Assembly: GCA_041288045.1 (NCBI GenBank)
Contig: JBGGMM010000209.1
Location: forward strand, 1-52,709
Direction of reading: 5' to 3'
DNA length: 52,709 nucleotides
Origin: Pseudobdellovibrionaceae bacterium
GTDB lineage: Bacteria > Bdellovibrionota > Bdellovibrionia > Bdellovibrionales > Bdellovibrionaceae
The position numbers are program-made. This document shows positions 33,001 to 36,000 of this stretch, in pieces (position 1 is the first letter of the stretch; every line of letters starts with the position of its first letter).

Positions 33001-36000
33001 ATCCGCTTGCGGGTCCTTGGACACAAACTCTTCTTGTAAAAGTTCAATATAACCTGTCATTGTGGCCAGCGGTGATTTCAAATCATGGGCGGCAATAGCT
33101 GCAAAGTGTTCCAAATCACGATTGGATTTTTCCGACTCTCTCAGAGCCAATTCCACTTGCGCCCGCTGGAAGTTGGAATATTCATTCGCTGCCAGGGAAA
33201 GAACATTGTCAATGGAGTCGTTGATGATACTTATTTCAGTAAAACTGATCTGCCCCCGGCTATCGAGCGCCGCTAAAATCGCTCGGCGCAAAAGACTAAA
33301 CTGCTTGATGAGATCAGGCAGTGAAAAATTTTGCAAGATGGCGTGATGAAGACCTACCTTCTGCCCCAATCGATTTCCCTCGGAGGTTGAATGAAGAGGG
33401 CTTTGGGGATCAAGAACATCAATCAACTGATCGAGCCAGTTGGAAATGTGCTTTCTCACGGCCAGCCGATCGCTCTTGGTACCCTCTTTGATTTCTTCAC
33501 GAACCGAAACTTCCCAAGTCTCAAGAATTTCATGTTTTAAAAACAGAAGCGAGCGACTGGAATCAGGTGAGCTCTTCTCTTTAAGGTGGTCGGACTGAGG
33601 CTCCATAGAACTAAGACTTTACTCCGATTGCGCCTTCGACAACACAGAAAACAGAAATATGCTTTCTCAAATAGACGGAATGCATCCCTCATTGATCTCA
33701 ATTGAGATCACCGACAAATGACATAGCTACAAGCTGGTCGCCTTCACCCACTCTTGCCTTTGCTCCACTGTCGTCGGCAGGAGCTTCCCCTCATCCAAAC
33801 CTTCGCGGATCCAGCCGATATTTTTTTTCACAACAGCTTTTTTCTTTGTGGCGCTGATTTCGGCTTCGACGCTGCCTTCGAGTACGCAGAGGACTTCTTT
33901 TTCTTTTGAAGCTGCGAGCACGAATTCGGTGCCTCGCACCCCGGCGACGATCGATGGAATTTTGTATCGGTACTTTTTTGCTTCTGGTGGGTCGACTTGC
34001 AGACGCAGGGTTCCGTTTTGTAAGAACAGAGTCGCTGGATGCGGAACTCCGTCTTTGTAGGGGGACTCTTCGATTTTCACTGTGGAGTTTTCGCCGATCA
34101 CCATAACTGAATGCTGCTCCACCAGCTTCAGCTTGGTGCCGGGACCGGTGATCACTGTGTCGCCAAAAGCTAAAAATTGGCCGACTTTGAGAGGATTTTT
34201 TTCATCCAGAACATTGATCCATTGAGCATTTGGTTTTGTCATGACTATCACGGTCCACGCATTTGCGGAGAGCGCGAAAATCTGCATCAGAATGAAGAGA
34301 TGGAATTTCATTTGTGAAGCCTCCCTTAAGATTCTCAGATTGAGACAATAAACTGACCAAGACTCTGGCAAATTTTGAGAACTTTCGGTGGGCCATTTGG
34401 CTCTCGATCTTGGTCTTGTTACAATAAAATAAATGGAGGTTGGAATGCACGTGATTTTCGATCCAAAGCCCAAGTGACGACCCGTCACTAGGATGGCTAC
34501 CGCAAAGAAGCATTCACTTAAAACCAAAAAGAAAACTTAAAAACTGATGAAGGAGGTTCCCGCAGAAATTTAGATAGGATTTTCATCCTTCCTTTGCTCA
34601 AGGCAAACTTGTGGAAACGCGAGGGCGCAAAGCTAGAGGGGCTAACAGGTCGAGACTCATGACCTCATGCCAGCCAGACTGCCAGAGGACGAACAAACGG
34701 AAGGAAAAAATATGAAAAAGGTTTCATTCCCCTGAGCCCGCTTTGATAATCAAGGTTGATTGCAAAGCGGGTTTCTTAGTTTCTAGCCGCTTTTCTGGCC
34801 CAGACTAGACCCCGCAAATTCAAAGTATTCTCCAATAAAATCCGATGTCTAACCTATGATGCGGAAACGTTTTTCGGATCGCAAATTAGTCATAGGGACG
34901 CTGGTGCTTCTAATTATTGAAGTCACTTGGCTCCTCATGCATTTGCAGATGATCCCGAATCCCTTTCGCACAGCGACTCCACGAATGGAGCAACAACCCG
35001 CCGGCTATGTGGTCAAATCCCAACATGAACTGCGAAAACGCGGGCTGAATTCTTTGGTGTGGGAAAATTCAGAGAGCAACGACACTCTTTATTATTTTGA
35101 TTCGGTTCTTACTTTGTCACAATCTTCAGCTACACTGTATTTGCATGAGCAGACCGAAGTGCATTTGTCTGAAAACACTTTGGTCACCATCGAGCCACAA
35201 ACAATGGCCCAGGATTCGCAAATCCGCTTGAAATTCACTCGCGGTGATTTGCGCGCCAGAAACCCCTACGCTAGCACCAAAATCGAATCCAAAGAGTGGA
35301 GCTTAAGCCTGAACCAAGGCTCCGAAGTTTCATTAAGACAAACAGGCAGCGATGATTTCGAAGTGGAAGTGCTCAAGGGAAATCTGGAATTTCAGAAAGA
35401 CAGCAAAACTTCGGCTTTAGCCGAGAGCCAGGTTTTAAAAATTGAAGACAACAAAATCTCTGAAACTTTGAAAATCGAAAAGGATCTCAAATTTCAAGGC
35501 CCTGATTATCAAAGAATTTACTCTTTCCAAGATGAAGCTAAAATCCCTCTCACTTGGAAGGGACAGGCTGAGAAAATTCAAATCGTCCCTCTGGGTGAAG
35601 AGAAGGTCGTGAAAACTCTCGAGCCCGGCCAAAGCGCCGAAAATCTGGATCTGCGCCCCGGAAAATACACTTTGCGACTTTTAAAAGATGGCAAAGTTTC
35701 AGAAGCCAAAGAAATCGAAGTCTGGAAAGCCCCCACCCTGCATCTTTTGGCCCCTTTTCCGCGCGACCGAGTTCGCACTCAGGAAAACATCTCTTTCATT
35801 TGGTCTTATATGCCAGAAGCTCGTGAGTACAAATTTGTGATCACCGACAACCGCACGGGCCAGATCGTTGAAAAACGAGTCAAGGACAATGCCATTGATT
35901 TCAATTTCCTCGATGAAGCCGATGTGCAGTGGAAAGTCATTGGCATCGATGCCGACGGCTTTGAAATCCCCTCCCCCTACGCCAATCAGATTTTCCCACG

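Follow-up and report, generated by a model that had tools for sequence, protein, structure and literature searches.

The window, by which we mean the whole 52,709-nt stretch of Pseudobdellovibrionaceae DNA that was analysed, encodes a predicted stand-alone transcript of 345 nt (about 34432-34776) that has its own promoter and terminator, encloses a c-di-GMP-I aptamer, and is almost certainly the orthologue of the merRNA of Bdellovibrio bacteriovorus. Sequence comparison across the family resolves this RNA into a promoter, an optional upstream micro-ORF (ORF1), the aptamer stem P1, a purine strand that competes with P1, a second, SD-led micro-ORF (ORF2), a C/U-rich box conserved as RNA, a stop codon and a terminator. 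The mechanism we propose, which we rate at a little below an even chance, is that c-di-GMP gates the access of ribosomes to ORF2 through two competing helices, P0 and P1, and thereby the exposure of the box. Coordinates are those of the window, and features lie on the plus strand unless stated otherwise.

The aptamer and its identity as merRNA

An Rfam search of the window returned a sole match, to c-di-GMP-I (RF01051) at 34592-34686, with 59.8 bits against a gathering threshold of 35 bits; it is also the one RF01051 match in the window's genome, G000, in agreement with the survey's finding of a single aptamer at this place. The equivalents of the ligand-contact residues G20 and C92, located at 34602 and 34682, are kept in 93 of 93 loci. 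An A20 in place of G20 would indicate cGAMP. The role of G20 and C92 as ligand contacts is taken from 10.1101/617340. By score and contacts the aptamer is of the c-di-GMP-I class, and it is predicted to bind c-di-GMP. Its stem P1 pairs 34590-34596 with 34683-34689.

The family set comprised 101 genomes from 41 genera. The aptamer is present in 96 of these genomes and 40 of the genera, with a second match in two genomes, so that the family-wide occurrence reported by the survey is upheld in the larger set. All 97 other aptamer matches were retrieved; analyses of 93 loci leave out four that contig ends truncate (L060, L093, L096 and L097) as well as L022, a second copy whose box has diverged. 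An aptamer-less version of the RNA was sought in the five family genomes without a match: the box pattern is absent from four, and its single match in the fifth sits in unrelated coding-like DNA.

The orthology with merRNA follows from shared elements, found both in the published sequence and in the named B. bacteriovorus record L115, together with synteny. The published sequence, read by eye, contains the same boxes and both reading frames, MRTHEHHDDELK-stop and MEGTNTYKDWFHSP-stop, and the window RNA matches it in the content and order of its elements; L115 holds these elements as well. The published PmerRNA promoter fragment (PMC12622784) ends in a string found in L115, and stops just past the box homologous to the −10 element of the window. 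From the −10 box to the end of the terminator U-run, L115 spans 452 nt, in line with the published 445-nt RNA (PMC3627812). RNA-seq contigs from four studies were placed on L115, and two runs have thousands of short contigs over about 670-1100, between the predicted terminator at 661 and the promoter at 1113, while the stretch 1148-1283 is covered by contigs of 0 of 4 studies. Since contigs give no ends, strand or level, this coverage is consistent with the published RNA and says nothing further. The commonest upstream neighbour in the family, an NUBPL/Mrp-type (Mrp/ApbC-type) NTPase gene seen at 35 loci, matches 30451-31422 of the window, and the commonest convergent neighbour, an SLT-LysM gene seen at 44 loci, matches 45175-47115. 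The window RNA lies between the two, with inserted genes on either side, and thus in the same chromosomal interval as merRNA. The survey's description of a self-terminating counterpart of merRNA is therefore sustained.

Promoter, conserved boxes and terminator

A consensus scan places a sigma70-type promoter at 34397-34425, with a −35 element TTGGCT (34397-34402) and an extended −10 element TG-N-TACAAT (34420-34425). The family promoter matrix scores 32 bits at this site and predicts a start at about 34432. Because the matrix finds no site in 39 of the 93 loci, transcript lengths rest on 52 of them: 345 nt in the window, and 252-496 nt across those loci. Farther upstream, an unstranded palindrome TCTCA-N3-TGAGA (34333-34345) is a candidate transcription-factor site; of 52 loci, 22 have a relaxed form of it ahead of the predicted start, while control stretches gave 0 and 1, and G000 as a whole has 61 copies of the palindrome, 47 of them intergenic.

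Ahead of the aptamer lies a 5' purine box, AAGGAGG (34550-34556), which is SD-like and has no start codon behind it. Its GGAGG core occurs in 93 of 96 loci and the full 11-mer AAGGAGGUUCC in 19 of 96; in the window the 11-mer occupies 34550-34560, two positions from the 34548-34558 given by the survey. A closing helix could form between AAGGAGG and the last letters of the C/U-rich box (CCCCU), always with an A.C mismatch (61 of 61 variants). The pyrimidine strand AUCCUUCCUUUG (34585-34596) provides both the 5' side of the outer helix P0 (UCCUUCC) and the 5' side of P1 ((U)CCUUUG). A proximal hairpin AGGAU-UUUC-AUCCU (34575-34589), for which folding predicts a mean of about 3 pairs across 39 genera, is a second competitor for this strand, whose CCTTYY core is found in 89 of 96 loci and whose full form ATCCTTCC is found in 37 of 96. 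Beyond the aptamer, the purine strand GGAAGGA (34699-34705; GGAAGG in 82 of 93 loci) is at once the 3' side of P0 and the SD of ORF2, and it is followed by the C/U-rich box GUUUCAUUCCCC (34721-34732), which is conserved as RNA. The exact 12-mer is present in 71 of 93 loci, GTTT[CT]ATTCCCC in 75 of 93 and TTCCCC in 89 of 93. For this set of boxes, background stretches 700-850 nt away gave 0, 0, 7 and 8 of 90. Positions reported earlier for AUCCUUCC (34585-34592), for GGAAGGA and for GUUUCAUUCCCC were all recovered. Conservation of the boxes is far above chance and restricted to their cores; the full strings are not family-wide, and the boxes are less invariant than the survey had it.

The intrinsic terminator (34737-34777) has its stem at 34737-34771, an apical loop AAGGUU at 34752-34757, and a U-tract to about 34777; the survey had its beginning right, but its end, at 34790, too far downstream. 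Of the 93 loci, 86 yielded a terminator on parsing, with a mean of −18.4 kcal/mol, and in 77 of the 86 it begins 2-4 nt past the C-run.

Competing helices and a proposed mechanism

UCCUUCC and GGAAGGA had been read as an outer helix that encloses the aptamer. The strands are indeed complementary, with P0 pairs 1-6 complementary in 65-69 of 69 variants and few two-sided changes, but the last two C's of UCCUUCC also belong to P1, which is itself 6-8 pairs long at 88 of 92 loci. As both helices need the same CC, their full forms are mutually exclusive, and P0 is a rival of P1 instead of a helix around it. The covariation cited in favour of the outer helix disappeared on comparison with shuffles (score 0.100 against 0.100, with 223 of 500 shuffles as high and no signal above them), and for the closing helix, too, no covariation above shuffles was found.

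Free folding of the window RNA is modelled with P0 at 0.97 and P1 at 0.01, the genus mean for P0 being 0.23. When the aptamer core is insulated and no ligand is present, P1 is predicted to win in 32 of 39 genera and reaches 0.95 in the window, and P0 keeps at least 3 pairs in only 3 of 39. Because the free and insulated runs contradict each other, folding does not establish a switch or tell which way it would work, and it was discarded as a guide to direction. A local hairpin that takes up the 5' strand of P1 together with G20 has −2 kcal/mol or lower in 85 of 93 loci, a count that has no control set beside it. On these models a P0/P1 switch is possible.

In the mechanism we propose, the stand-alone transcript would be a c-di-GMP switch that acts on its own 3' end and not on a neighbouring gene. 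With ligand absent, the purine strand would pair back to form P0, so that the ORF2 start would be masked and the box largely free. With ligand bound, P1 would take the shared CC and the ORF2 start would be released, upon which ribosomes, or local pairing with GGAA/AUG, would cover the box. Given such ligand-dependent masking or release of the start, the output would be ribosome traffic over the box and the exposure of the box, with the ORF2 peptide itself probably of little weight. The parts of this proposal differ in strength: gating by ligand through P0 and P1 seems to us marginally probable, the direction described (P0 without ligand, P1 with it) is somewhat favoured over its reverse, and action in trans is a tentative suggestion, its pairing of the free box with other RNAs at translation starts being the least certain step of all.

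According to the published proposal, the RNA is a passive store that soaks up c-di-GMP and frees it on decay, its flanks merely stabilising it. The extreme abundance of merRNA and its lack of a cis gene, both described in PMC3627812, speak for such a store, as do the ligand contacts kept at every locus and a P1 that is preformed when the core is insulated; the sponge role has itself been described as never directly tested. A store would need neither two SD-led frames, nor a strand that competes with P1, nor a box kept letter for letter, and we regard it as unlikely. It is compatible with ORF2 gating, and the two are not mutually exclusive.

Two small open reading frames

ORF1 (34445-34477) encodes MHVIFDPKPK-stop and is preceded by the SD GGAGG (34435-34439) in the arrangement GGAGG-N5-ATG; the survey's description did not include it. 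Homologues ending in D-x-x-P-K-stop were counted at 58 of 95 loci and in 23 of 40 genera with a peptide filter picked after inspection, ORF1 being absent from the other 37 loci, and 3 of 4 loci of the family f2 have an ORF1-like frame that ends in LDPPPK. With a nucleotide anchor at the stop codon, an SD-led start lies in the frame of the stop in 52 of 100 loci and in other frames in 2. Changes by codon position number 314, 262 and 558, third positions being the most variable, and synonymous variation is seen at Asp (GAT/GAC) and Pro (CCA/CCG/CCC); the last codon is no evidence, because the anchor at the stop fixes it. An SD-led in-frame start, a conserved stop and synonymous variation, as expected of a translated small ORF, are all found. 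ORF1 is by these signs a real yet optional small ORF, and very probably a translated one. Also optional is a module made up of a hairpin across the ORF1 stop (34474-34488) and a following AGGAU, together 34474-34494; among the 58 loci with ORF1, the hairpin occurs at the stop in 22 and AGGAT in 22.

ORF2 of the window (34712-34735) encodes MKKVSFP-stop. Across the family, 68 of 90 loci read the box as (W/R/K)FHSP, 57 of them stopping straight after Pro, and 14 and 8 loci use the other two frames. The window is one of these 22, so that the earlier statement that the reading frame is not kept in this genome is correct as regards the family frame; an SD-led ORF with its own stop after Pro is nevertheless present. 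The micro-ORF hypothesis of the survey likewise stands in part, with one frame in 68 of 90 loci and a better supported ORF upstream, but with the window in another frame. Two arrangements of the start were seen. At 57 loci the start codon lies 2 nt before the purine strand, which then overlaps codons 1-3, and 52 of these have an SD of their own; at 33 loci, the window among them, it lies 8-18 nt past the purine strand, which serves as the SD. Both arrangements place the start signal on the P0 strand. An ORF2 start codon is absent in 3 loci, and the purine anchor used in this analysis was hand-set in 3.

The frame runs for 7-22 codons and ends at the terminator. Family-wide it tends to be kept through changes in length: 31 of 61 length changes in ORF2 are divisible by 3, whereas three spacers of this RNA that do not code give 57 of 175 (spanning tree, p 0.014), which is moderate evidence since kin are not independent. 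The codons of the box are TTT in 82, CAT in 75 and TCC in 92 of the 93 loci, and no synonymous codon was found at F, H or S, a pattern that gives no sign of constraint on the protein there. As these codons never change synonymously, the box matters as RNA. Codons in the N-terminal part of ORF2 vary freely. We consider ORF2 probably translated; selection seems to act on translation through the box and far less on the peptide, and the box is constrained as RNA.

The peptides could instead be the products: the (W/R)FHSP end of ORF2 and the D-x-x-P-K of ORF1 would function as small proteins or arrest the ribosome, and the output of ORF2 would be set by the riboswitch. The frame bias and Pro-stop of ORF2, its use of both GAT and GAC for the Asp before W/R, and the protein-level variation of ORF1 are all in keeping with this. 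We nonetheless think it rather improbable, given the lack of synonymous change at F, H and S, the 22 of 90 loci off frame, the variable N-terminal part, and the loss of ORF1 from 37 of 95 loci. Relocation of ORF1 elsewhere in the genome was also considered and rejected: a search of five genomes gave 5 matches in one of them, not above the level of controls.

CsrA-type loops and candidate targets of the box

The RNA might also be a decoy, modulated by c-di-GMP, that draws the translation repressor CsrA away from flagellin mRNAs in attack phase. The csrA gene is present in 96 of 101 family genomes, in G000 at C64:23983-24138 and adjacent to fliW, and B. bacteriovorus CsrA is reported as an active repressor (PMC13443453). 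Hairpins with A(N)GGA number 64 over 39 genera, against 17 in antisense and 23 in shuffled sequences, and 30 against 7 in 16 distant loci. In 24 of 38 genera the terminator tip contains GGA, where shuffles give 11.9 (maximum 24 of 2000), and its apical part contains GG(A/U) in 33 of 38; among 109 terminator-like hairpins of G000, which have shorter tips, the shares are 21% for GGA and 29% for GG(A/U). Flagellin leaders have similar loops, also with GGU. Such a decoy is improbable all the same. There are just 1.6 A(N)GGA hairpins per RNA, with 1 in the window and 0 in L031, the 5' variable part is barely enriched (z 1.1), and many of the GGAs are SD sequences. Presence of csrA does not discriminate, the gene being found also in families that do not have the RNA (128 of 151), and a negative correlation is reported between fliW, present in 29 of 31, and the BarA-UvrY genes by which Csr sRNAs are driven (PMC7652899). 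So low a loop count falls short of the many GGA hairpin loops that define a Csr/Rsm sponge, and leaves one or two CsrA sites plausible as an input.

The box is the complement of GGGGA-AUGAAA. In G000, with gene starts taken from a rough gene caller, 19 of 700 translation starts reached a pairing of −14 kcal/mol or lower, compared with 5 of 700 coding interiors; shuffled boxes gave a mean of 7.6 starts, and 3 of 40 were as high as the real box. A cross-genome comparison covered flagellins (137 starts, which came from 24 of the 25 genomes searched). Starts of MGMR-type flagellins, GGA-ATG-AGA, have GGA in 42 of 52 and AGA in 41 of 52, compared with 16 of 53 and 19 of 53 in MGLR paralogues, and in G000 they rank 46, 48 and 51 of 2765 for pairing with the box. 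Yet a genome's own box pairs no better with its own than with foreign flagellins (20 genomes, permutation p 0.78), and MGFR starts (7 of 9) show this GGA bias too, as do f2 genomes that have no box (3 of 3); a compensatory flagellin codon predicted for the genome G182 was not found there. Flagellin starts are complementary to the box but do not covary with it, and as targets they are a lead only. Secreted-protein mRNAs were rejected as targets, the share of signal peptides being 0.36 against 0.36.

That ligand binding chiefly sets the stability of the RNA itself has a precedent in the Vc2-terminated small RNA of Vibrio cholerae (10.1101/617340), likewise a small RNA with a c-di-GMP-I aptamer, and translation of ORF2 up to the terminator could tune decay too. 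In that RNA a leader fragment has the aptamer as its 3' terminus and the aptamer governs stability, whereas here it is internal to a terminated unit with a strong terminator behind it. Such control would account for the level of the RNA and not for its purpose, and we give it slightly less credence still.

Neighbouring genes

The next ORF is convergent to the RNA in 70 of the 92 loci with DNA beyond it (29 of 37 genera), which implies that there is no conserved cis target. The co-oriented protein gene expected behind a classical cis-acting riboswitch is thus generally missing, and the terminator intervenes. In the window, the downstream gene is a FecR-like one of 777 aa (34856-37189), so named from an Atlas cluster with FecR on 36% of its members; Pfam gave no match for it. 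As a homologue follows the RNA in only 8 loci, this gene is by comparison of loci a lineage-specific neighbour and no conserved target. A classical attenuator for the gene downstream, its terminator being opened by ribosomes that have reached the ORF2 stop, would suit the 2-4 nt between that stop and the terminator stem and the same-strand gene of the window, but it is very improbable in view of the 70 convergent loci and a neighbour common to only 8.

Beyond the family, and relation to known RNAs

In a sample of the phylum, the aptamer was found in 35 of 151 genomes. Sixteen loci from six other families (f12, f16, f17, f19, f20 and f25) have the same layout in different letters; in 15 of the 16, the anti-P1 strand is unmistakable and, like a pyrimidine box on the 3' side, sits in the same place. 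GAAGAGG and a 3' CCUCUUC, the perfectly paired equivalent of AAGGAGG and the box, are both present in 15 of 16 loci; two pairs of the closing helix are exchanged relative to the family (G-C for A-U and the reverse). Also in 15 of 16, CCCCUUUGAAA pairs with the P1 strand or with a downstream UUUCAAAGGGG, the terminator coming next. A start codon behind the purine strand, looked for by eye, is missing in most of these distant loci, and the layout is absent from four loci of f22-f24.

The merRNA of strain HD100 (PMC3627812) is the closest likeness: it too is a c-di-GMP-I RNA that stands alone, and it agrees in its boxes, its two ORFs, its terminator, its promoter type and its synteny. It has 445 nt to the 345 nt here, and its ORF2 start overlaps GGAAGGA, which the window's follows. 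With c-di-GMP-I (GEMM-I, RF01051) riboswitches in general, the window RNA shares the ligand-contact G and C and a strand that competes with P1; it differs in having no conventional downstream gene. Spot 42/SpfP and AzuCR, dual-function sRNAs whose ORF overlaps the pairing region (PMC12612679), resemble it in placing a short ORF over a conserved C/U-rich stretch, and UCCC-motif sRNAs (PMC3861533) in having UCCC immediately ahead of the terminator. Gating by an internal aptamer is not described for these sRNAs in the portions of the sources available, and a trans target of the window RNA is a candidate only. The sponges CsrB, RsmY and RsmZ (PMC7652899) share with it A(N)GGA loops enriched over shuffles; they have many such loops to its one or two, while here FliW is present and the RNA contains an aptamer and ORFs.

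Significance

PMC3627812 calls merRNA non-coding and states that neither a conserved downstream ORF nor conservation beyond the Bdellovibrio lineage was found. Judged from its conserved sequence, it is not simply non-coding, and its anatomy departs from that description. No description of ORFs or of an expression platform in merRNA appeared among the literature matches listed, a set that leaves most subscription papers and preprint supplements uncovered.

A bolder extension, which we consider unlikely, would make merRNA a mass-action translation brake in the non-growing attack phase, with c-di-GMP turning the brake off by freeing the ORF2 start. Because the box is complementary to a GGGGA ribosome-binding site plus AUGAAA, merRNA in an amount equal to all mRNA could block a large number of start sites, including those of MGMR-type flagellins (10 bp complementary); the RNA's own ORF2 start would be a built-in decoy, and the CsrA-type terminator loop a second input. 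If true, a second-messenger aptamer would here control, by way of a micro-ORF, a seed that acts in trans.

In the attack phase of the model predator, no non-ribosomal RNA is more abundant than merRNA. The present comparison extends it across the family and, in altered form, to further families of the phylum, and it replaces "non-coding, no expression platform" with elements that can be mutated: two start codons, the shared CC, the 12-nt box and the terminator loop. A riboswitch with a micro-ORF or a 3' seed as its output would put a known aptamer to unusual use.

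Genomic neighborhood of the RNA

In the source genus, the merRNA orthologue is flanked by two divergent FecR-like genes, found in the window at 33727-34311 on the minus strand and at 34856-37189 on the plus strand; a gene for an RRM-domain RNA-binding protein lies at 32089-32400. The palindrome TCTCA-N3-TGAGA, present at 34333-34345, occurs in 61 copies genome-wide; spacers of two and four nucleotides give counts of 5 and 11, respectively. Intergenic DNA, about 10% of the genome, holds 47 of the 61. The palindrome looks like the binding site of a global transcription factor.

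Duplicated and distant forms of the RNA

One compared genome (G023, contig C7) carries tandem aptamer units, L022 and L077, about 1.4 kb apart, and the box of one of them is degenerate. In 15 loci from other families of the phylum (L180-L203; families f16, f17, f19, f20, f22, f24 and f25), one conserved gene lies 3' of the RNA on the same strand, presumably encoding a QueE-type radical SAM enzyme. An ACCCC motif in one of the aptamer's loops could pair with a downstream G-run. The complete 2.2-Mb genome G200 (locus L186) contains the RNA, with an altered box, together with csrA and fliW; a search of that complete genome returned no flagellin match.

Flagellin starts and CsrA-type loops

At L285 (genome G014), the family box, the conserved C/U-rich stretch 3' of the aptamer, has a perfect 13-nt complement about 18 to 6 nt upstream of a flagellin start, and related AAGGGGA starts occur at L282, L287, L316, L317, L340 and L343. 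In four genera, including that of the source genome, an SD-led ORF of 5-7 codons directly precedes the SD of one flagellin paralogue, about 60 nt 5' of the flagellin start (L222, L223, L224, L225 and L226).

In APsRNA1, a published attack-phase sRNA of 207 nt (PMC3627812, supplement S1), about four hairpins with A(N)GGA in the loop can be made out by eye. APsRNA1 is a better candidate for a CsrA decoy than merRNA. Among the 137 flagellin leaders (L206-L354), hairpins of the A(N)GGA type are present in 89 and those of the A(N)GGU type in 32, a pattern that suggests control of flagellin by CsrA, with GGU tolerated in this lineage.
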